Shown here one piece after another: positions 3,027 to 24,728 of a DNA stretch of 32,000 nt. The number at the start of each line of letters is the position of its first letter. Within the stretch, counting starts at the first letter, position 1. Under the pieces are notes generated by a model that worked only from the letters and a program-made list of their open reading frames with translations, was not told the origin of the DNA and made no database searches. Source of the stretch: Candidatus Kuenenia stuttgartensis (GTDB taxonomy: Bacteria; Planctomycetota; Brocadiia; Brocadiales; Brocadiaceae); assembly GCF_900232105.1 (NCBI RefSeq), contig NZ_LT934425.1:2610001-2642000 (forward strand), given 5' to 3'. The position numbers were made by a program, and so were the translations under genes.

Positions 3027-3230
3027 AGGTAAGCACTACACCAAACTACCCTATTTGTTATTTTAAAAAAACACCCGCATTGCATAGAAAAAATTCTCAA
3101 ACCAGCAGGACTTATCTGTAAAAAATCCGTCACGTTACTCTATTGCTTGAGCAAAAAGTTTTAAAAGCAATGGGTTTTGTAAAAAAAACATCTTAATAGT
3201 GCAGCGTATAAATTCAGGCTATTTTGTGTC

Positions 3231-3656
3231 CTATACGTAAACAAGAGCCCCTGTTTTACACGCCTCAACACACGCCATCGTATCGAATCCCTTACAATCA
3301 TCACAATTAAAAGCGTATTTAAGTTCAGTATTTTTGGTAATGGCGCCAAACGGGCAAGCACTTACACACTCCCAGCACCCAACACATTTTGCGGTATCAA
3401 TTACAACATTTCCATCCTCATATTTTGTAATTGCCCCATACTCACAAGAAGCCATACACTTTGGTTTTGCGCAATTCTGGCACACCGTCATATATGGATG
3501 ATCTTTCCGGATAGACACTTGCAAGCGGTACTGCGATTTTGGATTTTCGGTAAAAGCATCATAAAGGTTTCGGGACGATGAATGCCTCACCGCACACTCG
3601 ATCATGCATTGTTTACACGTTACGCATTTGCTTTTTATAAATTTTTTTTTCAGCAT
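3231..3656 (-). CDS. 4Fe-4S ferredoxin-type iron-sulfur protein (multi-cluster)
   Basis: 141 aa with four Cys clusters: CVTCKQCMIEC, CQNCAKPKCMASC, CVGCWECVSACP, CDDCKGFDTMACVEAC. Confidence 0.85.
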   Translation of the reverse strand: MLKKKFIKSKCVTCKQCMIECAVRHSSSRNLYDAFTENPKSQYRLQVSIRKDHPYMTVCQNCAKPKCMASCEYGAITKYEDGNVVIDTAKCVGCWECVSACPFGAITKNTELKYAFNCDDCKGFDTMACVEACKTGALVYV

Positions 3657-3886
3657 AGGTTCATACTCCTGCGTTTGACAAGTTCATTAAACGGTTTCTC
3701 TACAATTTATCTTCATAAATAAGTCAACGTGGGGAGAGCTTCCTGAAACCATGGATTGCTCAGATAAAAATATCAATACTCTGTGAAATCAGTAGCTTCA
3801 ATCTTTTTTAATTGGTGGATAGTTTCTCCTCTCCAGTACAACGAGTATTTTATAATAGAATGATAAAAGCCGCAAACAAAATTCTG

Positions 3887-4300
3887 CTATGGTTGTTTTT
3901 CAGGGTCAACAATAGTAGGAGCGACTATCTTCTTCAGACCAGCCCCTTTAGCGGCATCCATTACGTCAATGACAAGTCCGTAGGGAACATTTTTGTCCAC
4001 CCGCAAAACAAGGGTCTTTTCCGTTTGTTGAGAAAAAGCCTTCTTCAATACCTGTATAAGTACTTTTCTTTCAACAGGTTCATTCTGGAAAAATAACCTT
4101 CCGTCACGGGAAATATTTAATACTTGTTCATCTACTTTGCTGGTTGGTGTGTGTTTTGTCGTGGGAAGTTCCAGTTGAATATTTGGCTGATCGATAAAGG
4201 TTGAGGTAACCAGAAAGAATAATAGGATAATGAACAACATATCCACCAATGGAGTAAGATTAATAAATGATTTTGAAGGAGTTTTTTCTCTGAATCTCAT
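3887..4300 (-). CDS. exbD: ExbD/TolR biopolymer transport protein
   Basis: 137 aa. Typical N-terminal segment INLTPLVDMLFIILLFFLVTSTF followed by a periplasmic domain (LVLRVDKNVPYGLVIDVMDAAKGAG). Confidence 0.9.
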   Translation of the reverse strand: MRFREKTPSKSFINLTPLVDMLFIILLFFLVTSTFIDQPNIQLELPTTKHTPTSKVDEQVLNISRDGRLFFQNEPVERKVLIQVLKKAFSQQTEKTLVLRVDKNVPYGLVIDVMDAAKGAGLKKIVAPTIVDPEKQP

Positions 4301-4319
4301 TGTTTAATTACCAAATTTC

Positions 4320-4466
4320 TACGGGTTAGGGTTTGTAACCCGAAGCCCACATGTTTTCTATGGTTGATTTCTCTATCGCTCGCATAGAGTGTTATTAACT
4401 AAATTGTAGAGACGTATTGCAATGTGTCTCTACCCTTGTTCAGATTTTAAGCCCTAACCGTCGGAG
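4320..4466. repeat. Composite palindromic (MITE-like) element containing a GTAGAGAC...GTCTCTAC hairpin
   Basis: Outer inverted copies acgggttagggt (4321-) and gccctaaccgt (4450-). Local hairpin cgggtta/taacccg. Central 28-nt hairpin gtagagacgtattgcaatgtgtctctac at 4406-4433, with two G-U wobble positions on the + strand. Confidence 0.6.
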
Positions 4467-4496
4467 TGCGCTGTCGCTTCTCTCACCTTAAATAAC

Positions 4497-4658
4497 TCAA
4501 ATTTTGGCTTTTTTCTCTTGAACTCGTTTCAAACAAGATGGGCTTTCGGATGCTTTTTTATACCATAGAGCGCGCTTATTCGATGCCTTTATTTCCTTAA
4601 AACCTTCTTCTTCCAGATGTTTTTTAATAGCATTTTCTTTTAATATTCTTTCAGCCAT
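4497..4658 (-). CDS. Hypothetical small protein (53 aa), overlaps the upstream gene by 19 nt
   Basis: Hand-translated MAERILKENAIKKHLEEEGFKEIKASNKRALWYKKASESPSCLKRVQEKKAKI. Below the ORF-track size cutoff. Its only support is the overlap with 4640..4957. Confidence 0.3.
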   Translation of the reverse strand: MAERILKENAIKKHLEEEGFKEIKASNKRALWYKKASESPSCLKRVQEKKAKI

Positions 4659-4957
4659 TTCTGATACCTTTCTTTGTAAAATTCGAAATTGTCTTTAATA
4701 TCCTTTATTGCCATCGTCAATGCCTGTCCGTTATCGAGGAAATCATACCAGATTTTTCTTGTAACTTTTCCATCTGTATTGAGAATATCTTTATGTGGAC
4801 AGCCGTGTCCACTATCATATCTAAGAATTTCATGCCATTCGCCTTCAAACGCGGACAAAAGCTTTACGACAAATTCTGTAACATATCCCTTTTCTGTTTT
4901 AAAGTGCACATAAACAATAGTTTTTTCTTCCAATTCCAAAAAATATTCTTTATCCAT
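4640..4957 (-). CDS. Hypothetical protein (105 aa), possible toxin/antitoxin-type small accessory gene
   Basis: ORF MDKEYFLELEE...ILRYDSGHGCPHKDIL... No family recognised with confidence. Sits inside the insertion that splits exbB from exbD. Confidence 0.5.
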   Translation of the reverse strand: MDKEYFLELEEKTIVYVHFKTEKGYVTEFVVKLLSAFEGEWHEILRYDSGHGCPHKDILNTDGKVTRKIWYDFLDNGQALTMAIKDIKDNFEFYKERYQKWLKEY

Positions 4958-5033
4958 ATTATCAAAGGAAATATTCCATTATTGAAATAATAATGTCGCA
5001 TTTGTTTAAATCAACAGTGCTTTTCCGCCGCTT

Positions 5034-5056
5034 ATATAGCTTCTTTTCAAAAAACT
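5034..5056. repeat. Solo copy of the TTTTCAAAAAACTAAAGYGTTAC motif (terminal repeat of the MITE-like family)
   Basis: ttttcaaaaaactaaagtgttac, 22 nt from the 3' end of the hicB-like gene. A weaker direct copy (cttttcaaaacaaaattagtttatg) lies at about 5285-5309 on the other side of that gene. Confidence 0.6.
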
Positions 5057-5078
5057 AAAGTGTTACCAGTAAATAGCA

Positions 5079-5273
5079 TCAGGCATTTACCTCTACCTCA
5101 TAAATAGCGCCTTTGTTTTCCTCAGCAAGCATTGTTAAATATGTATGAATTGCATCTTTAATGTTTTCCAGAGCATCTTCTAAAGTATCTCCTTGGCTGT
5201 GGCAGCCATGGTAGATTGGACAATGCACATCATAGCCATATTCACTTTTATGCACCACTACCGGGTATTTCAT
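5079..5273 (-). CDS. HicB-like antitoxin-fold protein (UPF0150), orphan
   Basis: 64 aa: MKYPVVVHKSEYGYDVHCPIYHGCHSQGDTLEDALENIKDAIHTYL. Fits the UPF0150/HicB N-terminal pattern (y.v.fPd.pGC.sqGdT.eEAl.N.keAi). No adjacent hicA could be found. Confidence 0.75.
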   Translation of the reverse strand: MKYPVVVHKSEYGYDVHCPIYHGCHSQGDTLEDALENIKDAIHTYLTMLAEENKGAIYEVEVNA

Positions 5274-5515
5274 TTGTCAGCCCTCTTTTCAAAACAAAAT
5301 TAGTTTATGATTTTACTATTCATCAGGTTTGTTGGCATTGCCATTAACTGGCACACGCGCCAAATACCACTATCCTTTTTTCCAGGATTCGATAATTAAT
5401 GGCAACTTCATAAAATCTATCCTTTTTCTAAAGCTTGTTTTCGATGTATTGTCTTCCTTTAATTCTTTTCTGAAAAGCCCTTTTATTGTAACTCCAAACA
5501 AAAAATATCTTTTCT

Positions 5516-6121
5516 CTATACTTCGGGTGGATAAAGCTTGTTGAGAATAGTGAGGGAATATTCTTCTATTTCACGGACATAACCATCCACCTTCCTGTCA
5601 AAATAATTATATGCAACCAAAGAAGGAATTGCAATGCACAGGCCAAACACCGTTGTACGTATGGCAACCGCCAGGCCTCCGGCAAACGCCTTCGCATGTC
5701 CAAGTCCCAGTTCAGAGATAATGGCGAAGATATCTTCCAGCCCTAATACGGTACCCAGCAACCCCAGCAAGGGAGCGATTGCGGTAATAACCTCCAAAAG
5801 CCAAAGACGCTTTTCAAGCACCCTTGTTTCCTGCCTTCCCATGGCCTGGATATCAATAAACTTTTCTTCCCGCGAGAGGTGGTTATTCGAAAGAATACGC
5901 CGCAAAAGATTCGAAAAAGGGCCTTCTATTACCTCGCATTTTGAGATTGCAAACGGTATGTCTCTCGGGCTCTTTATTGCTTCTATTGTCTGTATTATTT
6001 CAGGTTTGAGTATCTTGTTCTTTCTTAAATTAATTGCCCGCTCCATAATAATTGCGAGTGAAAACACCGAACATACCAATAACGGTATCATTATCGGCCC
6101 TGCTCCCAATAGCCATTCCAA
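5516..6121 (-). CDS. exbB: ExbB/TolQ/MotA-family proton channel
   Basis: 201 aa with three TM segments. Conserved C-terminal core AIAPLLGLLGTVLGL...GGLAVAIRTTVFGLCIAIPSLVAYNYF. Confidence 0.9.
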   Translation of the reverse strand: MEWLLGAGPIMIPLLVCSVFSLAIIMERAINLRKNKILKPEIIQTIEAIKSPRDIPFAISKCEVIEGPFSNLLRRILSNNHLSREEKFIDIQAMGRQETRVLEKRLWLLEVITAIAPLLGLLGTVLGLEDIFAIISELGLGHAKAFAGGLAVAIRTTVFGLCIAIPSLVAYNYFDRKVDGYVREIEEYSLTILNKLYPPEV

Positions 6122-6157
6122 ATTACTATTCCTCCTGTTATGTATTTTTCTGAATAA

Positions 6158-7606
6158 TTAGAAAAAATAAAAATTAAACTTTACATTAATAGATGATTCC
6201 TTAATGTGTGAGGGAAAGGGGTCCAGCGGAGAAGCACTCTTAATAGAAGAAACAATACGCGAGGCAAGTTGAAAATTACCCGCATCCTCCACAATTTTTA
6301 CCCCTTCAATAGCACCATTTGGCAACACTTTGAATTCAATAATAATCGGCTTGTCTTTGTTCGTCACCAGGTTAATCTCTGCCCGTGTGCCATATCCCAG
6401 AAACCAATACAATGATATTCTCTGCCGGATATGTTTAAAATATGCTGCATACTTGTGTTGTTTAACGTTAAAAGACGGCGCCCCTGGAATTTCTGCATTA
6501 GACAGCGTATCTTCAAACAACACCGGATCATTGCCGGAGCCTTCATCCTTGGCAGCAACATTAAAGGAGGCCTTGGGCTGCTCCTTTTCAGCTACAACCT
6601 TCTGGCTTTCCCCGGTGGTTTCTCTTTTATTTTGCTGTGTAACACCGTATGTTCCTGCTGGCGGTGTAGTTACATGGTCTTTTCTCTCTTTTCCAGTTTC
6701 TTTCGTTATTTCACTTTTCCTTATGCCTTGCAATTCTTGCGGCTCTGGTAACAACTCGCCTTTTTCCACCTTTGACGCATTTTTAATATTCCTTGTTTCT
6801 TCCAGAACATGTATCCCCTCCTGGCGGGAAATTTTCTCGGGGAATCTTTCCTGCCTAACGCCGGCTTCTGCCGCTAACGTTTGTTTCTGCAGTTCTTTTC
6901 CATCGGTATCCGTCAGGGTAGTGGTTTTATCGGTTTCATCTGCCTTTCCCGCGGAGGGCACTCTTTTGTATTCTTTTACGTCAACCCTTTCCTGCTGCAT
7001 ACCTATGGAGTCAATTTGTTCTTTCTGAGGAGCTGGATTTTTTTCTGTCTGCCGAGATTCCTTGGCAGCATTGTTTTCTGCAACTCTCTCTTCCTTACTG
7101 CCAGGCTTTTCAACCGTTTTCTGCGCCTGGTTTTGCCGCTGGTCTTCAATGGAAATGCCCTGTTCGCCTTTTCCCAGCAAAGGAACCTTTGACTGTCCGC
7201 CTGCGTATGGTTCGTTGTTAAGCACACTTGTGTCATCCGGGTTTTTGCCTTTTGCGGAAGCCCCTTTTTCACCAATCCTGTCTGTTTCGGCGGAGGGTTC
7301 CTCTTCTTCTTTGTTTTGGGAAGTATCCGTAAACGTCTTATCCTTCTTCTCCTTTTCTAATAGGCTTTTTTCCTTCGATACTTCAGAAGCCGTGAGTTCT
7401 TTTTTATCGTCCTTACTTTCCAGGTCAAATGTAATTGTGAATTCATCCGGTTCACGCACAAAACTATCTCTGAGCGATCTGATGCTTAATAACTGATTTC
7501 CCTGAGGAGAAAAGAAAAAAAAAAGGCCATGGATTGCTACAGAAACAATAATAAGGAGGGCAAACAGGTATCTTTTATAAAAATCGGAAAGGTGTTTAAT
7601 GAACAT
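6158..7606 (-). CDS. TonB/TolA-family energy transducer with a long charged linker
   Basis: 482 aa. N-terminal TM anchor (YLFALLIIVSVAIHGLFFFF), then a linker of about 330 aa rich in E/K/Q/T. C-terminal TonB_C/TolA-like domain (YAAYFKHIRQRISLYW...IIIEFKVLPNGAIEGVKIVEDAGNFQLASRIVSSIKSASPLDPFP). Lies immediately upstream of exbB. Confidence 0.65.
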   Translation of the reverse strand: MFIKHLSDFYKRYLFALLIIVSVAIHGLFFFFSPQGNQLLSIRSLRDSFVREPDEFTITFDLESKDDKKELTASEVSKEKSLLEKEKKDKTFTDTSQNKEEEEPSAETDRIGEKGASAKGKNPDDTSVLNNEPYAGGQSKVPLLGKGEQGISIEDQRQNQAQKTVEKPGSKEERVAENNAAKESRQTEKNPAPQKEQIDSIGMQQERVDVKEYKRVPSAGKADETDKTTTLTDTDGKELQKQTLAAEAGVRQERFPEKISRQEGIHVLEETRNIKNASKVEKGELLPEPQELQGIRKSEITKETGKERKDHVTTPPAGTYGVTQQNKRETTGESQKVVAEKEQPKASFNVAAKDEGSGNDPVLFEDTLSNAEIPGAPSFNVKQHKYAAYFKHIRQRISLYWFLGYGTRAEINLVTNKDKPIIIEFKVLPNGAIEGVKIVEDAGNFQLASRIVSSIKSASPLDPFPSHIKESSINVKFNFYFF

Positions 7607-10625: not shown

Positions 10626-11079
10626 ATAACCCTCCTCCGGTTTAGAGAGTAATTTAGCAAAGGTGTAATGATTTTAAAAGTAAATATTTATTATTTTGCA
10701 ACAATATGCTAAAAAATGGAAAGAAAAGGAGTTGGCGGCACAAAACTGGAGTTCAACAACCCATGCTGAAGCAGTTGCGCAATCCACTCACAGTCCTTCA
10801 TGTCGGTCTTCCGGTCGGTTTACAATATACGCATGCCCCAGACACATTTTCATCGTTTCTGGGTGCCGCTAAAGCGGCATGATGACTGGTTCGTAAAACG
10901 TAAAATACGGGAAAAAATTTGCATTCTTCTTTATTTTTGTGTTACCATCCTTTCTTTTCCAGGGAAACGCAATTTCCTATCCTCTCTCCATTTAAAAGAA
11001 ACTTGATATTTTCAAACAGTGAATGATAGCCAATGACTCGAAAATAAGCCGCAACAAAAAAGTATAAAGATACCAATAT

Positions 11080-11247
11080 CGCCATGTGATCGGCCGCGAA
11101 ATCGGCGATCTCGGCAAGGTCATATGTACCCGCAAACCAACACGCTTGCCAGTGGTTATGACTCGCGATGAAGTGAAAGCTGTTCTTGCAAACTTGACGG
11201 ACGATAAGTGGTTCATGGCCTCGCTTATGTACGGCTCGGGGTTATAG
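11080..11247 (+). pseudogene. Fragment of a tyrosine recombinase, most like the integron-integrase (IntI) subfamily
   Basis: Hand translation ...RKPTRLPVVMTRDEVKAVLANLTDDKWFMASLMYGSGL* matches the IntI/Xer region RLPVVLT.dEv..ll..l.g...l.a.LLYGtGlR. Homology stops at a TAG (11245-11247), within the sequence GTTATAG. The upstream 10.75-11.08 kb is only faintly similar and is multiply disrupted. Confidence 0.65.
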
Positions 11248-11323
11248 TCAAAAGCGTCTGGTTTTAGAATAATAAACACACCCCTTATATGATGAGTAAT
11301 TTTAGAGAGATAGGAGGTTATCA

Positions 11324-11539
11324 ATGAAATTTACAGCAATTATTGAACGTGAATGTGATGGACATGTATCACTGTGTCCGGAGTTAGATATTGCAAGCCA
11401 AGGTGATAGTATTGAACAAGCACGGGACAACCTTCGGGAAGCATTAGAACTGTTTTTTGAGACAGCATCCGCTGAAGAGATAAAACATCGACTTCACGAT
11501 GATGTTTTCGTAACGCAGGTTGAGGTGGCAGTTGGGTAA
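11324..11539 (+). CDS. hicB: HicB-family antitoxin (UPF0150)
   Basis: 71 aa: MKFTAIIERECDGHVSLCPELDIASQGDSIEQARDNLREALELFFE. GGAGG lies 7 nt upstream. Overlaps the hicA start. Confidence 0.85.
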   Translation: MKFTAIIERECDGHVSLCPELDIASQGDSIEQARDNLREALELFFETASAEEIKHRLHDDVFVTQVEVAVG

Positions 11540-11752
11540 ACTCCGAGTTTTGTCTGGCAAAGATGTATGCTCGATTTTGGCAGCACATGGTTTCATAGAA
11601 GTGCGTCGCCGTGGTAGCCACATCGTCATGCAAAAAAACTTCCCCAAGGCACAATAACGGTTACTGTCCCAGACCTTGATGAAGTCAGAATTGGAACGCT
11701 TCAATCCATCATCCGTCAATCAGGGCTGCCTCGGGGTGAATTTGAAACATGA
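11532..11752 (+). pseudogene. hicA: HicA-family toxin, frameshifted in an A7 tract
   Basis: TTG at 11532. Frame 1 reads LGKLRVLSGKDVCSILAAHGFIEVRRRGSHIVMQK, then a stop at 11655-11657. The +1 frame continues KKLPQGTITVTVPDLDEVRIGTLQSIIRQSGLPRGEFET*. An eighth A in caaaaaaac (11631-11639) would restore one HicA ORF. Length is 221 nt, that is 3n+2. Confidence 0.8.
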
Positions 11753-11761
11753 GGATTTGGT

Positions 11762-11833
11762 GTCTAACAAACCGCTGCACCTGACCGCGATTCCGCTGCG
11801 CTCCATAGCGGCAGGTGGGCTTTGTCGTTATGC
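11762..11833 (+). repeat. attC-like imperfect palindrome after the hicBA cassette
   Basis: GTCTAAC (fits RYYYAAC) at 11762-11768 and GTTATGC at 11827-11833. Between them, hand-paired stems aaa/ttt, cc/gg, cacctg/caggtg and ccgc/gcgg, with bulged bases. Confidence 0.35.
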
Positions 11834-11929
11834 GGTATAATTAAATCATTGGTGTCCAATAAGGCCACTGGCTTCTTGAAAATTTAATTTAGATAAGAGT
11901 GTAATTAAATATAAAACATTGGAGGGGAT

Positions 11930-12217
11930 GTGAGAACCCCTGAAGAGTCAAAGATCGTATGGACTGACTATATGAAATATAGAGCCGAATTAAGAGGATT
12001 TGAACTACTTAAGGTTGAAAATATATTGCGGTATTCGGGAGAAATATACTTCGATACTGCAACCCAACGTTTAATTGCAGTAGGTAAACATGATGATAGA
12101 CTGGTTATAATTCCATATGAGAAACAGGGGTGTGAAATAACACCTATCTCAATTCATGCTACTACGCGTCAACAAATTAATTTCCGACTTAAAACGGGGA
12201 GGTTCATATATGGATAA
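11930..12217 (+). CDS. DUF4258-like small protein (putative toxin of a DUF4258/DUF2283 pair)
   Basis: 95 aa with a GTG start preceded by GGAGG. IVWTDYMKYRAELRGFELLKVENIL...LVIIPYEK...ITPISIH. 8-nt overlap (ATGGATAA) with the next gene. Confidence 0.6.
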   Translation: MRTPEESKIVWTDYMKYRAELRGFELLKVENILRYSGEIYFDTATQRLIAVGKHDDRLVIIPYEKQGCEITPISIHATTRQQINFRLKTGRFIYG

Positions 12218-12437
12218 AACAAAGATGGCATATTTTAAAGATGAAGATATTCTGCATATAATTATCTCTGAGGAAAAAGAAGCAGATAGCATTGAGTTAA
12301 GCCCGAATATTACAGCGGAGCTGAATGAAAGCGGAGAATTAATTGGCATAGAAATATTAGAGGCAAGTTCTTTTCTTCGCGATTCAATATTGGAATCATC
12401 ACAAGCTAAAATACTTAAATTAAAAAAAACCGTATAA
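12210..12437 (+). CDS. DUF2283-family protein (putative antitoxin)
   Basis: 75 aa from the ATG at 12210 (GGGGAGG 7 nt upstream). MDKTKMAYFKDEDILHIIISEEKEADSIELSPNITAELNESGELIGIEILEAS fits the pattern YD.e.D.l.i.l....s.e....vd.d..G.lvGiEil.As. Confidence 0.75.
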   Translation: MDKTKMAYFKDEDILHIIISEEKEADSIELSPNITAELNESGELIGIEILEASSFLRDSILESSQAKILKLKKTV

Positions 12438-12490
12438 CAATCAAATTCAGCGGACGGCTAATAGTCCACCGCTGATTTCTGTCGTTATGT
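12432..12490 (+). repeat. attC-like imperfect palindrome after the DUF4258/DUF2283 cassette
   Basis: GTATAAC (12432-12438) and GTTATGT (12484-12490). Inner stem aaat(t)cagcgg / ccgctgattt has 10 bp with one bulged T. The ending tgtcGTTATG is shared with the 11762-11833 element while the centre differs. Confidence 0.35.
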
Positions 12491-12653
12491 TTCACGATGA
12501 CTGGAGTGCGGCATGAAGCTGGAAAGCTTTGGCGATGTACTTGCATCCATAAGGAAGAACTCTATTGATCCCTCAGATTACAGCGATTGTACGGGTGCAT
12601 TCCTGATTTTTTGTAACTTCCGCTATGTTTTAATGAAACGTTGCAGTAGTGTT

Positions 12654-12668
12654 AACCCTGACAGGGTT
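12654..12668. repeat. Single REP unit AACCCTGACAGGGTT
   Basis: Exact 15-nt palindrome of the family that flanks the RAYT gene. Confidence 0.8.
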
Positions 12669-12771
12669 GTTTCGTCCTGACCCCATCATTAACGGTTACA
12701 AAAAAACGGGAATGCTCCCGATTGTACAGATTAAAAAAACGTAGGAACACGGAGCACCATGTCCCTGCAAT

Positions 12772-12928
12772 TGACCAATGACCAATGACGAAACACCTTC
12801 TAATTACAAGCCCAAATTCCGCAGACAAGGAAAAATGTTCAATATTCAATTCTCAATGTTCAATTCTCAAATTGTTGCTCATTTGCCTCTATTCTTTTAC
12901 ATTGAGCATTGAATATTGAATATTAATT
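12772..12928. repeat. Heptamer-periodic repeat block (TGACCAA x3, then AATNYTC arrays forming a long hairpin)
   Basis: tgaccaa tgaccaa tgacgaa (12772-12792). aatgttc aatattc aattctc aatgttc aattctc (12834-12868), opposed by attgagc attgaat attgaat (12901-12921). Confidence 0.8.
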
Positions 12929-12961
12929 TTCAAAAAGGTGCTAACGGAGCTTTTCGCGGTG

Positions 12962-12986
12962 TTTTTTCAAAAATCTAAAGTGTTAC
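12962..12986. repeat. Solo copy of the TTTTCAAAAAYCTAAAGTGTTAC motif, 13 nt upstream of the helicase start
   Basis: ttttttcaaaaatctaaagtgttac. A weaker second copy (ttttcaaaaaggtgctaac) lies at about 12927-12945. Confidence 0.6.
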
Positions 12987-12999
12987 AAAAGACTTCTTA

Positions 13000-15900
13000 A
13001 TGAAGATGGGGAATAGCCGCATTGTGAACTCAGATTTAACCTTTATTACCAATGAAGAAAATAGAAGCCTCCTGGAAAGATTCAGGGTCCTTATTGCAGA
13101 CACCCGGCTCTTTGATGTACTCGTTGGTTATTTCTATACCAGCGGATTCCATGCCATCTACAAATCCCTGGAAGATACCGAAAAGATCAGGATTCTTATC
13201 GGGATAAGTACAAACAAACAGGCAATAGAACTCATTCAAAAAGCAAAAAACAATCACCAGCCATTCCTTCCATATTCTCACGCCGAAGTAAAAGAACAAT
13301 TCGAACAATCTGTCACGGAAGAAGTAGAAAATGCTGAGGATAGAACAGAAGTTGAAGGGGGGATCCTTAAGTTTATTGAATGGCTGAAAAACGGAAAACT
13401 GGAAATCAGGGCTTATCCCACCGAAAATATCCACGCAAAGCTTTACATTATGACTTTTGTGGAAGGTGACAGGGATACCGGGAGAGTCATTACCGGGTCT
13501 AGTAATTTTACTCAATCAGGCCTTGTTGATAACCTTGAATTTAATGTAGAGTTAAAAACCAGGGCGGATTATGAATTTGCACTCCAAAAATTCAATGAAC
13601 TGTGGAAAGACGCCGTTGATGTAAGGGAACGATATATCTATACGATTCAAATAAAGACATGGCTGAACAACACCATTACCCCTTACGAATTGTATCTGAA
13701 ATTTTTATATGAATATTTCAAAGACGAACTCAGTCAGGCAGATGAAGTGTTTTTGAAATATCTTCCCCATGAATTTAAAAAACTGGAATATCAGGAGCAG
13801 GCAGTTTTAAACGCCAGGAAGATACTTCTGGAATACGGCGGCGTTTTTATCTCTGATGTTGTAGGGTTAGGCAAGACATACATATCGGCAATGCTGGCAG
13901 GACAGCTTGACGGCAGGACACTTGTCATTGCCCCTCCTGTGCTGCTTGAAAGATCGAATCCCGGTTCATGGACTAATGTATTTTCCGATTTCAGGGTATC
14001 GGCGGATTTTGAATCACTCGGTAAATTGGATGACCTTATTGACAGAGGGACAGAGAAATACACCAATATTATCATTGATGAGGCACACCGTTTTAGAACG
14101 GAAACAACGGTTACCTATGAGAAATTGGCGGAAATCTGCCGTGGCAAAAGAATTATTCTTGTAACGGCAACGCCTTATAACAATGCGCCAAAAGATATTT
14201 TAAGTCTTTTAAAATTATTTCAAAAAGCCAAAAAAAGCACTATTCCAAATCTTCAGGACATGGAAGGCTTCTTTAATGGACTAGATAAAAAGTTAAAAAA
14301 ACTGGACAGGCAGAAAGATTATATTAGATACATAAATACGGTAAAAGAAAATGCGCGGGAATTACGGGAAAAAGTCCTCAAATATCTCATGGTTCGCCGT
14401 ACCCGAACAGAGATTGAGAGATATTTTGGTGAAGACATAAAGAGCCAAAACATTAGATTCCCTTACGTTGAAAAGCCTGTTCCTCTTTTTTATGAACTCA
14501 ACGATACGGAGGATGAAATATTCAGCAAAACCATAGCATTGATAGCGCAAAAATTCAAATACGCCCGTTATATGCCTATGCTTTATTATGACGGTAAAGT
14601 TGGCCAGCTTGAAAAGCAGTCACAGAAAAACATGGGCAAGTTTATGAAAATACTGCTTGTTAAGCGTCTTGAAAGCAGTTTCTTTGCATTTAAAAATTCG
14701 GTGGACAGATTCCTCCGCTCTTACGAGATGTTTATAAAAGAGCTTGATGACGGAAGTGTTTATATAAGCAAGAAACACACTGGTAAAATATTTGAGTTGC
14801 TTGATAGTGACGATGATGAAGCCGTCCAGCGATTGATAGAGGAAGGCAAGGCGGAAAGATATGCAAGCAGTGAATTTAGAGAAGGCTTAAGAGATGATTT
14901 ACAGCACGACCATGACATTCTGCTTGAAATTAAAAAACTATGGCATCACATTGACCGCGACCCAAAGCTTTTAAAATTTTTGTGGGAATTATCCAAAAAC
15001 CCGGTCTTAAAAGAGAATCATCTGATTATCTTTACGGAATCAAAGGAAACCGCAAACTATCTGTTCAAAAACATAAATGAACATTATCCGGATAAGGTGC
15101 TGTGTTTTACTGGTGATTCAAGCGAGGCAACGCGAGACAAGGTTATTGAAAATTTTGACGCCAAAGCACGTCATCCTAAGGAAGATTACCGGATACTGGT
15201 CTCTACAGAAGTATTGGCTGAAGGCGTTAACCTGCACCGTTCCAATACAGTGATAAATTACGATATCCCCTGGAATCCTACCCGCATGATGCAGCGCGTA
15301 GGGCGTGTCAACCGCGTGGATACGCTATTTGAAACGATACATACCTTTAATTTTTTCCCGACCAAACAATCGAATGACCAGATAAAACTGAAAGAAGCGG
15401 CAGAGGCTAAAATCAATGCCTTCTTAACCCTGCTTGGAGGCGACGCAGAACTTTTAACAGAAGGAGAACCCATAGGCTCGCATGAATTATTTAACAGGTT
15501 GATTTCCAGACAAACGCTGGAAGGTGAGGAAGGGTCGGAGGAAAGCGAATTGAAATACCTCCAGGTCATTAAAGAGATTCGCGATAAAGACCCCGACCTT
15601 TTTGAAAAAATAAAACGCCTCCCCAAAAAGGCGCGCACTGCAAAAACCCTGACAGGGTTCTCAACCCTGTCAGGGTTAATTACCTACTTCAGACGGGGAA
15701 AACTCCAGAAATTTTTCAAAGCCGGCAGTAAAAATGTGGCGGAAGAACTGGATTTCATATCTGCGGCAAAGATTTTGGAAAGCGCCCCTGATGAAGAAAA
15801 GAAAGACCTTCCCGGACACTTTTACGAACTTCTGGATAAAAACAAAGCGGCATTTATCTTAGCGACAACGGAAGAAGTGCCGCAGCAATGGCAAAGGGGC

Positions 15901-16224
15901 GGACGTGACAGCACGGCAAGTATCCTGAGAATTTTAAAGGCAACCACGAAGAACACCCAAAAACTGACAGAAGACCAGGAACTATACCTCAAAAAAGTCC
16001 TCACCCAACTCGAGGAAGGCGGACTGCCCAAACAGACTGCAACGCAAACACTGAAAACCCTGAATGCGCTGAAGAATGAAATCGTTAACCCCCTCAAGGT
16101 ACTGGCAGTACTTCGGACGCATATACCGAAAAAACTTCTGGAAGAACATTATGCTGAGCAAAACCCAGCGGTATTTGGCAAGCGGGAAGTCATATTATCA
16201 TTATATTTGACAGCAAAACCCTGA
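13000..16224 (+). CDS. HKD/PLD-family nuclease domain fused to an SNF2-family helicase (defence-type helicase-nuclease)
   Basis: 1074 aa. One HKD motif, NIHAKLYIM...VITGSSNFTQSGL. Helicase motifs DVVGLGKT (I), IIIDEAHRFR (II), VTATPYNN (III), EGVNLH...NYDIPWNPTRMMQRVGRVNR (V/VI). Contains an in-frame REP doublet, and its stop codon lies inside a REP. Confidence 0.9.
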   Translation: MKMGNSRIVNSDLTFITNEENRSLLERFRVLIADTRLFDVLVGYFYTSGFHAIYKSLEDTEKIRILIGISTNKQAIELIQKAKNNHQPFLPYSHAEVKEQFEQSVTEEVENAEDRTEVEGGILKFIEWLKNGKLEIRAYPTENIHAKLYIMTFVEGDRDTGRVITGSSNFTQSGLVDNLEFNVELKTRADYEFALQKFNELWKDAVDVRERYIYTIQIKTWLNNTITPYELYLKFLYEYFKDELSQADEVFLKYLPHEFKKLEYQEQAVLNARKILLEYGGVFISDVVGLGKTYISAMLAGQLDGRTLVIAPPVLLERSNPGSWTNVFSDFRVSADFESLGKLDDLIDRGTEKYTNIIIDEAHRFRTETTVTYEKLAEICRGKRIILVTATPYNNAPKDILSLLKLFQKAKKSTIPNLQDMEGFFNGLDKKLKKLDRQKDYIRYINTVKENARELREKVLKYLMVRRTRTEIERYFGEDIKSQNIRFPYVEKPVPLFYELNDTEDEIFSKTIALIAQKFKYARYMPMLYYDGKVGQLEKQSQKNMGKFMKILLVKRLESSFFAFKNSVDRFLRSYEMFIKELDDGSVYISKKHTGKIFELLDSDDDEAVQRLIEEGKAERYASSEFREGLRDDLQHDHDILLEIKKLWHHIDRDPKLLKFLWELSKNPVLKENHLIIFTESKETANYLFKNINEHYPDKVLCFTGDSSEATRDKVIENFDAKARHPKEDYRILVSTEVLAEGVNLHRSNTVINYDIPWNPTRMMQRVGRVNRVDTLFETIHTFNFFPTKQSNDQIKLKEAAEAKINAFLTLLGGDAELLTEGEPIGSHELFNRLISRQTLEGEEGSEESELKYLQVIKEIRDKDPDLFEKIKRLPKKARTAKTLTGFSTLSGLITYFRRGKLQKFFKAGSKNVAEELDFISAAKILESAPDEEKKDLPGHFYELLDKNKAAFILATTEEVPQQWQRGGRDSTASILRILKATTKNTQKLTEDQELYLKKVLTQLEEGGLPKQTATQTLKTLNALKNEIVNPLKVLAVLRTHIPKKLLEEHYAEQNPAVFGKREVILSLYLTAKP
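15645..15677. repeat. 33-bp REP doublet inside the helicase ORF (in frame)
   Basis: aaccctgacagggtt-ctc-aaccctgtcagggtt, translated as (K)TLTGFSTLSGL. Confidence 0.9.
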
Positions 16225-16249
16225 CAGGGTTCTTAACCCTGTCAGGGTT
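16217..16249. repeat. 33-bp REP doublet, left flank of the RAYT; supplies the helicase stop codon
   Basis: aaccctgacagggtt-ctt-aaccctgtcagggtt. The helicase TGA (16222-16224) is the cccTGAcag of the first unit. Confidence 0.9.
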
Positions 16250-16270
16250 ACTTGTCCTTGGAGGAAGACA

Positions 16271-16834
16271 ATGAGCACAACTATCACGCCACTGTTACCA
16301 GGACACTGGTATCATATTTATAACCGGGGTATCAATGGCGAAACCATTTATCACACCGAGGCAAATTACCAATATTTTCTGGACTTGCTCGCCAAATATG
16401 TTTTTCTCACAGCAAAAGTATATGCCTATTGTCTTATGAAGAACCATTTTCACCTGTTGGTTTCTATTCATGATGATACAAAGAGAAAGCCACATCTGTA
16501 TTTTTCAGATATGTTTAACAGCTATACACAAGGGCTTAACAAACACCTGGGAAGGACGGGGAGTCTCTTCGAACGCCCCTTTCGCCGTAAGGTGATTTCA
16601 TCCGAAAAACAGCGGGTTCAGGTGACTTTATATATACACAACAATCCCAGGCATCATGGTATCATGAACGACATTGCGAAGTACCAATACTCTTCTTACA
16701 GGGCAGTGATGTCAAGCGCCCCAACGAAAGTAGAGCGTGAAGAAGTGCTTTCGTGGTTTGGTGGGCGTGATAGTTTTGTGGCTTATCATGGTGCCAGTCG
16801 TGATGACATTTCAGATGATTTAACATTGGAGTAA
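16271..16834 (+). CDS. REP-associated tyrosine transposase (RAYT; IS200/IS605 Y1-transposase superfamily)
   Basis: 187 aa. WYHIYNRGINGETIY, HUH motif AYCLMKNHFHLLV, catalytic-Tyr region TLYIHNNPRHHG, and FNSYTQGLNKHLGRTGSLFERPFRRK. Flanked on both sides by REP doublets. Confidence 0.85.
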   Translation: MSTTITPLLPGHWYHIYNRGINGETIYHTEANYQYFLDLLAKYVFLTAKVYAYCLMKNHFHLLVSIHDDTKRKPHLYFSDMFNSYTQGLNKHLGRTGSLFERPFRRKVISSEKQRVQVTLYIHNNPRHHGIMNDIAKYQYSSYRAVMSSAPTKVEREEVLSWFGGRDSFVAYHGASRDDISDDLTLE

Positions 16835-16844
16835 ATTTACCGTC

Positions 16845-16877
16845 AACCCTGACAGGGTTTGAAACCCTGTCAGGGTT
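16845..16877. repeat. 33-bp REP doublet, right flank of the RAYT
   Basis: aaccctgacagggtt-tga-aaccctgtcagggtt, ending 16 nt upstream of the MTase ATG. Confidence 0.9.
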
Positions 16878-16893
16878 AAAATGAGGCATTGAC

Positions 16894-19800
16894 ATGGATA
16901 AACAACAGGCAAAACAAATTATTCAGGAGACATTTGAGAACCCTTTTGATAAGGGCAGGTTTACCCTATTCATCAAAAATCTTCTGAACCATATTGAAGA
17001 AAACCGCATTCCTCCACGTCATGGTCAATTCATTCCTGACGCTTACAAGCCATACATCAGCAGTCTGGCGCGAATCGGCAAATTCAATGACAATGAAAAC
17101 AGGGTTGATATCCTTATCATAAAACTTCAGAAAGAGACCTCCCTTGAACGCGCCCGCACCATGCAGCGAAACTTTGTTGCCGGGTATTTACAGGGCAAAT
17201 ACGGTAGTTCAAATGAAAAAGAAGCTGCACTGGTTGCCTTTGTATCCCCGGATTCGGCAGACTGGCGTTTTTCACTGGTTAAGATGGACTATAAGTTTGA
17301 ACAGACTCAAGCCGGCAGAATGAAGGTAAAAGAAGAGTTTACACCTGCACGCCGATGGTCATTCCTGGTAGGCGCAAACGAAACCAGCCACACCGCCCAG
17401 AGCAGGCTGGTTAATATGTTGGCAAATGATGAGCATAACCCAACCCTTAAAGAACTGGAACAGGCATTTGATATTGAAACCGTAACCGAAGAATTTTTCC
17501 GAGAATACCGTGGGCTTTTTATCCGTACAAAAGAAGAACTGGACAAAATAGTAGAGACAGGTTTCAAACCTGTCTCTACCAGCCTGAAAAAGGAATTTGA
17601 ATCTAAAGGAGTTGATACCGTAAACTTTGCAAAAAAACTATTGGGCCAGATTGTATTTCTCTATTTTTTACAGAAAAAAGGCTGGTTCGGTGTAGCCCGC
17701 GAAGCCGAATGGGGCACAGGCTCTAAACACTTTTTGCGAGAGCTTTTTGAAAAAAGGCACGGCGACTATAAAAATTTCTTTAATGACATTCTGGAACCAC
17801 TCTTTTACGAAGCCTTGCGTAACGACCGCAGTCATGATGATCACTATTACAGCCAGTTTAACTGCAAAATCCCCTTCTTAAACGGTGGTCTTTTTGATCC
17901 CATTGGCAACAATGGCGGATACAACTGGGTACATAACGATATCTGTCTGCCGGACAGCCTATTCTCTAATAAAAATAAAACCAAAGAAGGCGATGAGGGT
18001 AATGGTATTCTGGATATTTTTGACCGTTACAATTTTACTGTTAGAGAAGATGAACCACTGGAAAAAGAGGTTGCCATTGATCCTGAACTTCTGGGCAAGG
18101 CGTATGAAAAGTTTAATGCAGTCCGTCCTGACAACTTTGAGGAATATGAAAAAGCGTTAAAGAGCGGTAAAAAAGGTGAAGAAAGCAAATTCAACAAGCA
18201 ATATGGCGTTTATTACACACCCCGTGAGATTGTCCACTATATGTGCCAGCAGAGCCTGATCAATTACTTGCACACAGAATTGATCGCTTCCAACCCTGAC
18301 AGGGTTCCAAACCCTGTCAGGGTTAAAGATATCGAAACCCTGATACACTTCGGCGAGCAGGTTAGCGAAAATGAAGAAATAGCATTGATCAAAGAACAAA
18401 TAATCTTAGAGGGTAAACAGAAATCTTCTGATTACAAATCAAAACTACCCGAAAGCATACGCAAGAATGCCGTATTAATTGATCAGAAACTGGCGGACAT
18501 CACCGTCTGCGACCCGGCAGTTGGCTCAGGCGCCTTTCCCGTTGGTATGATGAGCGAAATTGTAAAGGCGAGAAATGCGCTAGCACCCTTTATTGTAACT
18601 CAAGCTTCCCTATCTGCGTGTGTAGACGCACAGGCAGGCAGCTTGAGCCCAGGAACCCTGTCAGGGTTAAGGTTAGATACGCCAAGAACAACCTATGATT
18701 TCAAACGGCAATGCATCGAAAAATCTCTTTACGGCGTGGATATTGACCCCGGCGCGGTAGAAATTGCAAAACTTCGGCTGTGGCTATCGCTTGTTGTGGA
18801 TGAAGATGACATAAAAACCATCAAACCGCTACCCAATCTGGATTATAGAATTATGCAAGGCAACAGTCTGATTGAGATTCTAAACAACGAATTTTTTGAT
18901 GTGGCATTTAATCAAGAGAAGAAGGCACTTATAGAGCAACTTAAAAAAGCAAAGGACGAACTTTTTGCAATTTCAACTCCTTCATTAAAAGATGCAAAGC
19001 GAAAAGAAATTGAGGCATTGATTGCCAAAATTATTGAGCATGACAAAAAGGCAGCAATAGAAAAAATAAATTTAGAAATTCGTAGTAAGAAGGAACAAGG
19101 CAAGTTGTTTAATGATAAAATAATAGAAGAAGTAAATAGTAAGAGGATATTAGAATTAGAGGGAAAAATTCAAAAAATAAAAGACCTTAAAATCCCAGGA
19201 CCATCAGAACATTTTGAATGGCATCTTAATTTTGTCGAGGTTTTTCTCGAAAAAGGAAGATTTGATATTGTGATTGCAAATCCACCTTATTTACGCATTC
19301 AAGAAATCCAGAAAAATACTCCGGAACTAGCTGGAAAACTTAAGGATTGTTACTTATCAGCATCAGGCAGCTTCGATATTTATGCCTGTTTTGTTGAATT
19401 GGGAATAAGGTTAATGCATGATAGCGGTAACATTGCTTATATATTACCGCACAAGTTTTTCCAGGCATCTTTTGGGAAGAACCTACGAAAATTAATTTCC
19501 TCACAAAAGCTTTTACGAAAAATTGTAGATTTCGGTAGTAGTCAGGTATTTGAATCAGCAACAACATATACGTGCCTTCTGTTTTTATCTTCTCAAAATA
19601 AGAATTTCAAGTTTGCGGAACTGAAACCAAATACAAAATTAGACGATTTAAATGATGTATTTGCGTCTATAAATAGCAATAATGACTTGCGTTCAGAAAA
19701 TGTAGATGTTGCAATCATATCAAATAATACTGTGACAGAAAAAGAATGGCACTTTTCTGCAAGTAGTGCTGGAAATATCCTGTCCAAATTGAAGCAACAG

Positions 19801-20628
19801 CCAAGAACACTTGCTGATATTTGTGAAAAGATTTTTGTCGGTTTGCAAACAAGTGCTGACAAAATATATTTTCTTGAGCATATCTCAGAGAAGGATGGTG
19901 TGATAAATGCCTTTTCTAAGTCGCTCGATCGGGAAATCTCTATTGAAAAAGAAATTGTTAAACCATTATTAAAAGGTGCGGATGTTCATCGTTATTCAAA
20001 GTTACAGCCTAAAATATGGTGTATTTTCCCGTATGAACTGAAGAATAATAAGGTATTCCTTTATTCACAGAAAGAGATAAAGAGAAAATTCCCTTTAGCA
20101 TGGAAATATTTACTAGAGAATAAGAATGAACTAGAAAATAGAGAGCATGGGAGATTTAAAAAAAATTGGTGGTGTTTCAGTAGACCGCAAAATTTAACAG
20201 AATTTGAAAAGATGAAGATTCTTACACCAGATATTGCTTCAAATTGTCAAATGACAATTGATGATAAAGGTCTTTACCATACAACAACAGTGTACAGTTT
20301 TGTTTTTAAAGAAAACGGTAAAGAATCATCGAAATATTTCTTAGCCTTATTGAATTCAAAGTTATTGTGGTACTTTTTAACAACAACTGGTTCTGTTCTT
20401 CGCGGAGGCTTTTTTAGATTTAAAACAAACTATTTATTGCCTTTCCCCATCCCGAAAGAGCTTTCACAAAGCGAGCAAAAGCCTTTTATTGCCGTTGTTG
20501 ATCAAATCCTCATCACTAAAAAGAAAGACCCAAGCACCGACACGTCAGCGATGGAAAGGCAGATTGACCAAATGGTTTACAAACTCTACGACCTCACGCC
20601 GGAGGAGATTGCGATCGTTGAAGGGTAA
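16894..20628 (+). CDS. Large gamma-class N6-adenine DNA methyltransferase (Eco57I/PglX-like, with TaqI_C-like C-terminal module)
   Basis: 1244 aa. Motif I VCDPAVGSGAFPV; LYGVDIDPGAVEIAKLRLWLSLV; motif IV DIVIANPPYLRIQE. C-terminal LNSKLLWYFLTTTGSVLRGGFFRFKTNYLLPFPIP and the terminal QMVYKLYDLTPEEIAIVEG. The N-terminal region of about 530 aa has unknown function. Carries three in-frame repeat insertions. Confidence 0.9.
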   Translation: MDKQQAKQIIQETFENPFDKGRFTLFIKNLLNHIEENRIPPRHGQFIPDAYKPYISSLARIGKFNDNENRVDILIIKLQKETSLERARTMQRNFVAGYLQGKYGSSNEKEAALVAFVSPDSADWRFSLVKMDYKFEQTQAGRMKVKEEFTPARRWSFLVGANETSHTAQSRLVNMLANDEHNPTLKELEQAFDIETVTEEFFREYRGLFIRTKEELDKIVETGFKPVSTSLKKEFESKGVDTVNFAKKLLGQIVFLYFLQKKGWFGVAREAEWGTGSKHFLRELFEKRHGDYKNFFNDILEPLFYEALRNDRSHDDHYYSQFNCKIPFLNGGLFDPIGNNGGYNWVHNDICLPDSLFSNKNKTKEGDEGNGILDIFDRYNFTVREDEPLEKEVAIDPELLGKAYEKFNAVRPDNFEEYEKALKSGKKGEESKFNKQYGVYYTPREIVHYMCQQSLINYLHTELIASNPDRVPNPVRVKDIETLIHFGEQVSENEEIALIKEQIILEGKQKSSDYKSKLPESIRKNAVLIDQKLADITVCDPAVGSGAFPVGMMSEIVKARNALAPFIVTQASLSACVDAQAGSLSPGTLSGLRLDTPRTTYDFKRQCIEKSLYGVDIDPGAVEIAKLRLWLSLVVDEDDIKTIKPLPNLDYRIMQGNSLIEILNNEFFDVAFNQEKKALIEQLKKAKDELFAISTPSLKDAKRKEIEALIAKIIEHDKKAAIEKINLEIRSKKEQGKLFNDKIIEEVNSKRILELEGKIQKIKDLKIPGPSEHFEWHLNFVEVFLEKGRFDIVIANPPYLRIQEIQKNTPELAGKLKDCYLSASGSFDIYACFVELGIRLMHDSGNIAYILPHKFFQASFGKNLRKLISSQKLLRKIVDFGSSQVFESATTYTCLLFLSSQNKNFKFAELKPNTKLDDLNDVFASINSNNDLRSENVDVAIISNNTVTEKEWHFSASSAGNILSKLKQQPRTLADICEKIFVGLQTSADKIYFLEHISEKDGVINAFSKSLDREISIEKEIVKPLLKGADVHRYSKLQPKIWCIFPYELKNNKVFLYSQKEIKRKFPLAWKYLLENKNELENREHGRFKKNWWCFSRPQNLTEFEKMKILTPDIASNCQMTIDDKGLYHTTTVYSFVFKENGKESSKYFLALLNSKLLWYFLTTTGSVLRGGFFRFKTNYLLPFPIPKELSQSEQKPFIAVVDQILITKKKDPSTDTSAMERQIDQMVYKLYDLTPEEIAIVEG
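17551..17579. repeat. Perfect 29-bp GTAGAGAC...GTCTCTAC hairpin inside the MTase ORF (in frame)
   Basis: gtagagacaggttt-c-aaacctgtctctac, translated as VETGFKPVST. Same stem ends as the intergenic hairpins at 4406 and 8080/8142. Confidence 0.85.
18292..18324. repeat. 33-bp REP doublet inside the MTase ORF (in frame)
   Basis: aaccctgacagggtt-cca-aaccctgtcagggtt, translated as NPDRVPNPVRV. Confidence 0.9.
18654..18668. repeat. Single REP unit inside the MTase ORF, preceded by another palindrome
   Basis: aaccctgtcagggtt, translated as (G)TLSGL. Upstream at 18598-18647, ctcaagct...agcttgag encloses tgcgtgtgtagacgca. Confidence 0.8.
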
Positions 20629-20668
20629 AAGATGAACAAAAAAAGGAACTATTACATCTCCTAAAGAT

Positions 20669-24495: not shown

Positions 24496-24612
24496 AAAGT
24501 CCGCGATTTGGAATGCCAGAGTAATACCAGATGTTTACCGTCTAACGGGGTTGACAAGATTGTCTACAACCTTTACGACCTCGCGCCGGAGGAGGCTGAG
24601 ATTGTGGAGGGG
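24481..24612 (+). pseudogene. Ghost MTase mini-ORF (MDKQAK...VDKIVYNLYDLAPEEAEIVEG)
   Basis: Starts like the true MTase (MDKQQAK) and ends like it (..VYKLYDLTPEEIAIVEG) with only about 25 codons between. The ORF then runs on to 24789. Confidence 0.65.
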
Positions 24613-24728
24613 AAAAAGGGGAAGAATGGGAATAAACAGAGCATACTGTATAAATATTTCATCGAAGTAATGCCATGTGCCGCCTTGCAGAAAATGTTTG
24701 GTTTTGAAGTACATCGGAAGGAAAGAAT

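Follow-up and report, generated by a model that had tools for sequence, protein, structure and literature searches.

Sedentary chromosomal integrons with a decayed integrase gene (intI) are established in Xanthomonas, toxin–antitoxin (TA) cassettes are established in the superintegrons of Vibrio, and a host-wide family of attC recombination sites attached to varied cassettes is typical of such sedentary elements. Clusters of attC sites lacking an integron integrase have been termed CALINs, and 15 of 279 of them adjoin an intI pseudogene (Cury et al. 2016, PMC4889954). In the Treponema group, with which the integrase (IntI) of Kuenenia stuttgartiensis has been placed, intI reads towards attI (PMC3607928). 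Here we analysed a stretch of 32,000 nt from the genome of this anaerobic ammonium-oxidizing (anammox) bacterium, referred to as the window (positions 2610001–2642000 of G000:C1, a 4.41-Mb single-contig genome with 41% G+C; labels in G, C and L denote genomes, contigs and loci, and coordinates are those of the window unless given for the genome). Comparison with related genomes suggests that window positions 10989–12559 are very probably what is left, in place, of a wrecked chromosomal integron of the inverted (Treponema-type) sort. In terms of the described classes, the locus is a CALIN with an intI relic, derived from an inverted-type chromosomal integron, and thus a member of a well-known kind of element.

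Like other CALINs, the locus carries two or more attC sites on the same strand within 4 kb (here two, on the + strand) with no intact or working integrase nearby, its cassettes are of unknown or TA function, and a complete integron lies elsewhere in the genome. It differs from them in that the relic retains only 58 codons and none of the C-terminal part, so that it would escape the pseudogene criterion of >50% profile coverage (PMC4889954), and in that the loss of intI in place can be demonstrated through a sister species. The Treponema denticola-type inverted integrons (PMC3607928), a branch that already includes the Kuenenia IntI, share with it the orientation of intI along the cassettes and, in its relatives, an attI directly after the intI stop codon. 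In contrast to these, the platform described here is dead, and the only intact integron of the genome is divergent, with an integrase that is 32% identical to the fragment. The locus also resembles sedentary chromosomal integrons in its fixed array, inactivated intI, host-specific attC family and TA cassettes, but it is a two-cassette array and one of about 16 scattered attC loci, not one large array.

Both cassettes end in imperfect palindromes that were suspected from the sequence alone to be attC sites. The first (attC 1, also referred to as element 1) is 72 nt long (11762–11833, + strand; R″ GTCTAAC, R′ GTTATGC), and the second (attC 2) is 59 nt long (12432–12490, + strand; R″ GTATAAC, R′ GTTATGT), with the stop codon of the preceding DUF2283 gene lying within its R″ box. 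We examined them with two covariance models of our own that describe an R box, an unpaired spacer, an L box with extra bases in its 5′ arm and a variable loop. Model R1 was built from the two window elements and two genome copies of element 1 on a hand-drawn structure of R box, spacer, L box and loop. Model R2 used no window sequence and was built from ten sites, of which three are of class 1, two adjoin the intact intI of the genome and five come from the lineage-B arrays of relatives, lineage B being our name for the integrase group formed by the fragment and its relatives in other genera. R2 recognised attC 1 at 51.5 bits (E 2.8e-13) and attC 2 at 46.4 bits (E 1e-11), and its next-best match in the 32-kb window was the minus strand of attC 2 at 11.9 bits.

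When R1 was run on 45 kb of DNA from three class 1 integron plasmids, it returned five matches at E<0.01, all of them genuine attC sites on the cassette strand. These were three aadA1 sites (an intact one at 46.6 bits and two damaged ones, cut short by IS1 and split by an IS110-type element, respectively), the blaVIM-1 site at 34.4 bits and the arr-3 site at 21.6 bits; beyond these five nothing was found in the 45 kb at E<1, and the dfrA1 site was missed. In the genome itself R1 found further sites. Two of these are immediately upstream of the intact intI, on the strand opposite to it, where each marks the 3′ end of a small, co-oriented open reading frame (ORF). Finally, six orthologous copies of the cassette-2 attC were aligned with MAFFT. 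Seven of the 12 inner-stem pairs have changed on both sides, and 86% of the alignment cells pair, a share that sliding the partner lowers to 33–53%; none of 500 shuffles did as well. The inverse core does not vary, and past the crossover point G↓TT the sequences are unrelated. As both elements also stand at the 3′ end of a cassette with a G↓TT junction, the two palindromes are, by this comparison of sequences, real and structurally sound attC sites at which bottom-strand recombination is predicted.

Element 1 is one of a family of attC sites that is spread through the genus (mean identity 86%) and attached to different cassettes; copies lie at 1789579–1789650 and 1556237–1556308 of the genome, and others in G001, G002 and G003. 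Its first nine bases are the same as those of the aadA1 attC. The palindrome end TGTCGTTATG, which had been pointed out as common to both elements, is indeed present in both, but it is not diagnostic: just two of its eight genome copies are attC ends, and searching the genome for it yielded no attC beyond the two in the window. A crude scan by regular expression and k-mer for palindromes of the form RYYYAAC...GTTRRRY returned 78 matches without clustering and was of no use. Thermodynamic folding of the palindromes against shuffles gave modest z-scores of −1.1 to −2.6, as expected since attC hairpins are bulged.

Upstream of the cassettes lies the integrase fragment, 58 codons long (11071–11244, + strand), which corresponds to positions 75–130 of the 315 in the profile TIGR02249 and from which the ORF at 11086–11247 encodes an integrase-like peptide. 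The 58 residues score 45.6 bits (E 5.8e-12) with TIGR02249 and 24.1 bits with the IntI equivalog NF011946, but only 11.9 bits (E 0.1) with XerC; a Pfam search gave no match in this very short piece. The fragment groups with integron integrases, its best match among the tyrosine recombinase families, and not with XerC, and full-length genes of its relatives pass the TIGR02249 cut-off of 265 bits, which upholds its earlier identification as IntI-type. The intI of G017 (L026 10041–11183, minus strand), for example, scores 454.9 bits over all 315 positions, and its protein is 76% identical to the fragment over the 58 residues. Overall, the fragment is 77–84% identical to lineage-B genes from other genera of the family, and its DNA is 84% identical to the intI of G012, a gene of intact length. 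The close relatives found for the genome are anammox bacteria, with Ca. Loosdrechtia and Ca. Scalindua among the named homologues.

The fragment is the sole match to TIGR02249 in the window and scores far below the cut-off, and the region expected to hold the IntI-specific additional domain has been deleted from it. Relative to the intact genes of relatives and to a 92%-identical paralogous scrap at genome positions 3972241–3972369, integrase similarity stops at GGGGTTA inside GTTATAG (11241–11247), with 11244 as the last integrase-like position, exactly where the sequence-only reading had placed the end. By comparison with the G012 gene, everything from the Leu codon of the LYGSGL motif through the stop codon has been lost on the 3′ side, together with attI. 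The truncation had been described as one of the 3′ end, which is correct as far as it goes, but the fragment is cut on its 5′ side too. There, about 300 nt are missing between the fragment and a second relic (10989–11028, + strand) that derives from the promoter-proximal DNA around the intI start and overlaps the start itself. This start relic aligns locally with G012 (L027 10904–10943) at a score of 38, compared with 18.7 ± 2.4 for shuffles, none of 300 reaching as high.

Evidence that the gene decayed where it stands comes from G002, the closest species, with 95% identity in the flank. The two genomes share the pyrE-side flank up to window position 10978. Immediately past this flank, G002 has lineage-B intI sequence that starts at about codon 137, includes the IntI-specific ALDRKYPNAP...W.WQ stretch and reaches the stop codon, so that the two sister species retain nearly complementary parts of one ancestral intI at one site. 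In G002 this gene is followed by attI and then by a different cassette, which carries an ion-channel-like ORF and an attC of 49.9 bits. On the right-hand side, synteny with G002 (C2 50060 onward) resumes at about 12560, 70 nt past the second attC. This flank lies 180 kb away from the pyrE flank in G002, suggesting that a rearrangement also truncated the array. Between attC 2 and the resumption of synteny is a unique stub of 75 nt (12485–12559, + strand) with no second copy in the genome, which is probably the start of a lost third cassette.

The intI fragment and both cassettes lie on the + strand, a layout that had been regarded as atypical on the sequence alone. Co-directional layout is in fact the rule in lineage B: the attC matches of G017 and G012 lie downstream of intI on the same strand, and the same is seen in G002:C6. 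There, a palindromic attI motif comes after the 3′ end of a lineage-B intI and is succeeded by the junction CATTG↓TTATACGG and then by a homologue of cassette 2. The presumed lineage-B attI holds a perfect palindrome, TTATACAGWCTGTATAA, which is found after the intI stop codon in G017, G002:C6 and G002:C2 and in relics of the Kuenenia genome itself (L026 in G017, L040 and L031 in G002, and genome positions 24548–24699 and 3077264–3084868). Full versions of attI contain TTATACAGWCTGTATAA twice, about 130 nt apart, once after the stop codon and once just before the G↓TT crossover. In the window there was no match to this palindrome with up to three mismatches. The integrases of G002:C2 and G002:C53 carry the IntI-specific ALDRKYPNAP...W.WQ insertion. 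The intI of G002:C6 (minus strand of L040, which covers 2501–7500 of the contig) has a large internal deletion that joins the N-terminal part, as far as ...GREVGDLGK, to the C-terminal catalytic part; past the cassette-2 copy, this locus continues with an antitoxin/ParE-like pair that ends in an attC of the element-1 family.

Cassette 1 (11285–11827, + strand) consists of a hicB-like gene, hicA and most of attC 1, and the stretch 11285–11833 is 80–82% identical to cassettes in G002:C27 and G001:C8, which belong to two further species of the genus. In both relatives the homology starts at TTATATG, preceded by G, and its other end is at GTTA of the attC, beyond which the three sequences are wholly different. 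The antitoxin gene hicB (11324–11539, + strand) is recognised weakly (Pfam E 0.02; PDB 2yzt E 0.056). The toxin gene hicA (11520–11753, + strand) has the Pfam domain HicA_toxin on both of its halves, but the profile is matched in two frames, at positions 1–29 and 28–58. Compared with G001 and G002, one G has been lost from a run at 11632–11638 (CAAAAGAAAC to CAAAAAAAC), whereas the copies in G002:C27 and G001:C8 have an intact hicA and are set among other attC sites. Thus, the hicBA cassette proposed earlier is present at the expected place with its attC, but it does not contain an intact HicAB pair: the frameshift had been overlooked, and judged from its sequence hicA is a pseudogene and the toxin of cassette 1 is dead.

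Cassette 2 (11828–12484, + strand) consists of an ORF of 95 codons (11930–12217, + strand), a DUF2283 gene (12210–12437, + strand) that overlaps it by 8 nt, and most of attC 2, and has homologues in relatives and in distant contigs. The label DUF2283 (PF10049) was borne out by Pfam (E 8.4e-15; 55.1 bits, gathering cut-off 23). The label DUF4258 (PF14076), which had been attached to its 95-residue partner, was not: Pfam gave no such match at E up to 0.1, and the protein has a weak match to BrnT (E 0.086). BrnT and DUF4258 have both been assigned to the superfamily of RelE/ParE-type folds (PMC11980606). We found 554 homologues of the protein; among the 120 listed, identities range from 67 to 94% and no Pfam domain was found. 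Its predicted structure (predicted local distance difference test 92, predicted template modelling score 0.82) is RelE/ParE-fold-like, in that the Foldseek matches are mostly toxins of the RelE/ParE/HigB/YafQ type, all of them weak (best E 0.063, template modelling score 0.53). Cassette 2 is likely to encode a TA pair, and from its sequence the gene pair is apparently intact.

Like cassette 1, cassette 2 is a mobile unit, as its wider distribution shows. In eight of eight distant contigs examined (L042–L049; Ca. Scalindua japonica, a Calditrichota genome, Nitrospirota and Bacteroidetes assemblies, and metagenomes), the homologue of the 95-residue protein is followed by an overlapping DUF2283 gene, and seven of these have an attC, recognised by R2, where that gene ends. 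In all, the pair occurs with an attC of 59–61 nt in at least four other phyla at protein identities of 67–94%, and in the Nitrospirota contig it stands in an array with TIR and PIN cassettes. Homology among the copies ends exactly at G↓TT. Another copy is in G002:C6, where the first cassette behind attI is 91–94% identical to cassette 2 over its left end and DUF2283 gene, with the 95-codon ORF missing and the DUF2283 gene frameshifted. Thus, the same cassette is the first behind attI in G002:C6 and the second, behind hicBA, in the window, an order that would be expected if a newer cassette had been inserted at attI.

The junction between the fragment and cassette 1 is more complicated than was supposed. 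The sequence-only reading had cassette 1 begin where integrase homology stops, but its true start is at 11285, and the 40 nt in between (11245–11284, no strand assigned) are a piece of a dispersed repeat module, termed X here, whose copies elsewhere stand in unrelated intergenic settings. The other copies are at genome positions 1422761–1422800 and in G003:C40 and G003:C79, all in ordinary intergenic DNA, and Rfam gave no relevant match to the module in G003. Three of the four X copies start with G↓TT(A/G)TAG, the heptamer in which lineage-B intI has its stop codon. As the intI of G017 ends in GGGTTATAG, we considered that GTTATAG might be an attI core lying over the intI stop codon. This idea was dropped because the crossovers in G002:C6 and G002:C2 are located 37 to about 170 nt downstream of the stop codon, past the attI palindrome, and because the bases after GTTATAG in the window are the piece of dispersed repeat. 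The break on the 3′ side of intI could have arisen by a microhomology deletion or by an integrase-mediated event at a secondary GTT.

A secondary GTT is also central to another explanation, in which an integrase inserted the cassettes into GGGG↓TTA inside intI and thereby split the gene, the fragment being the left half of a gene inactivated by insertion. Integrase homology does stop at a GTT, the use of secondary sites by integron integrases is known (PMC4889954), and the predominant start of the X copies at G↓TT(A/G)TAG would be in keeping with such an event. A split gene, however, should continue on the far side of the insertion, and no remainder of the integrase follows the last attC; a candidate suspected there scored no higher than shuffles, 63–93 of 1000 of which matched its alignment scores. 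Together with the foreign 40 nt between the break and the true cassette end at 11285, the truncation of the fragment at its 5′ end as well, and the attI-linked cassettes at the same locus in the sister species, this makes insertion into intI improbable. Alternatively, the integrase scrap might be a transposed or duplicated piece with no relation to the adjacent cassettes, since the paralogue at 3972241–3972369 has the same 3′ alignment end. The two copies nevertheless differ in their ends, that of the window being longer on the 5′ side and that at 3.97 Mb longer on the 3′ side, and the latter is orthologous to a longer pseudogene in G002:C53 with a downstream attC of its own. As the window also keeps DNA from around the intI start and the remainder of the gene is present at this site in the sister species, we regard a transposed scrap as extremely improbable.

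The palindromes could in principle also be terminator hairpins or repeats of the repetitive extragenic palindrome (REP) or miniature inverted-repeat transposable element (MITE) kind, next to an integrase scrap by chance. Small repeats of high copy number are indeed abundant in the genome, with three within 1.5 kb of the remnant, element 1 is itself multi-copy, and the folding z-scores are modest. Such repeats would not explain why a model derived from the window picks experimentally established class 1 attC sites and nothing else in 45 kb, nor that attC matches are strand-specific, lie at the 3′ ends of co-oriented small genes and cluster with integrase genes, nor that homology between cassette copies ends at G↓TT. 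This explanation is close to refuted, and we give it hardly any credence. The interpretation as an integron decayed in place has difficulties of its own. It does not account for the 40-nt piece of X at the junction, and the base before cassette 1 is C where an intact attI/attC junction would give G. Three of the four core heptamers deviate from the consensus, as had been noticed from the sequence: GTTATGC and GTTATGT each differ from GTTRRRY at one position and GTATAAC from RYYYAAC at one, while GTCTAAC fits RYYYAAC fully and AAC and GTT are invariant in both elements. Moreover, the model alignments trace back to a structure drawn on the window elements, with R2 partly dependent in architecture and independent in sequence; the covariation comes from only six sequences, one of which supplies most of the double changes; and all the evidence is comparative.

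An intact intI elsewhere in the genome had been proposed as a check, and there is one, at 2802527–2803486 (411 bits against TIGR02249), together with many scattered fragments. This sole intact gene lies about 180 kb from the remnant in the window and is part of an intact integron (2800020–2803486; L013 7020–10507) that has two or more cassettes and the classical divergent layout. Overall, the integrase shares 46.6% identity with lineage B, compared with the 32% given above over the fragment. Lineage B itself is represented in this genome by fragments only, namely the one in the window, those at 3.97 Mb and 3.78 Mb, and C-terminal relics at 3.077–3.085 Mb. The relic at 3.97 Mb (3972229–3972405) adjoins the end of a [NiFe]-hydrogenase large-subunit gene, and at the same place G002:C53 (L039) has a much longer intI pseudogene and, 1.3 kb downstream of it on the same strand, an attC. 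Across the genome, about 30 attC sites in 16 loci were recognised by R2 at E<0.01. Of 29 such sites, 12 have a TIGR02249 match within 10 kb, compared with 7.3% of the genome, a comparison that is indicative only, as clustered sites are not independent.

We propose that both cassettes would have been inserted at attI by the now-lost integrase, and that the integrase gene would then have been destroyed through two deletions and the array cut 3′ of the second cassette by a later rearrangement, an order of events suggested by the comparison with relatives. What survives is, in order, a scrap of the intI start, 58 codons from the middle of the gene, the 40-nt piece of foreign repeat, which now occupies the former place of the remainder of intI and of attI, the two complete cassettes and the 75-nt stub. 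The TA pairs may have helped to retain the array. By itself, the remnant platform is incapable of gene capture or shuffling because neither integrase nor attI remains. The intact integrase, 180 kb away, might act on the two attC sites in trans. A stronger version, in which both are still excised and re-inserted by this enzyme and intI was destroyed by recombination of its own type at an internal GTT, is conceivable but unlikely; if true, the dead platform would remain a live reservoir of cassettes, and one canonical integrase would be servicing about 16 scattered orphan attC loci of an extinct inverted lineage.

Scans of the window with Rfam and for tRNA genes gave no match, and a promoter and terminator scan gave nothing informative. 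The remnant is flanked by three small families of dispersed repeats, at 12590–12720, 12814–12990 and 10845–10891. The first (about 130–148 nt) and the last (a palindromic repeat of 47 nt) occur dozens of times each, both in this genome and in the other Kuenenia species. A 55-codon ORF at 12513–12680 overlaps the first of these repeats and is probably no real gene. To the right of the remnant, a defence-like gene set at 13000–22366 encodes a protein of 1074 residues with PLD-like nuclease and SNF2/helicase domains, an Eco57I-type N6-methylase of 1244 residues with a TaqI-like specificity domain, and two further ORFs without a Pfam match.

The locus is of modest importance and points to no new mechanism. 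It is nevertheless a clean and dated example of how a CALIN originates, by loss of the integrase in place, with complementary pieces of intI and different cassettes in sister species. It also documents a small TA-like cassette, made up of the 95-residue protein and DUF2283, that travels with its own attC over a broad phylogenetic range. It shows, further, that one anammox genome contains two integrase lineages of opposite layout, a live canonical one and an extinct inverted one that is left only in fragments.

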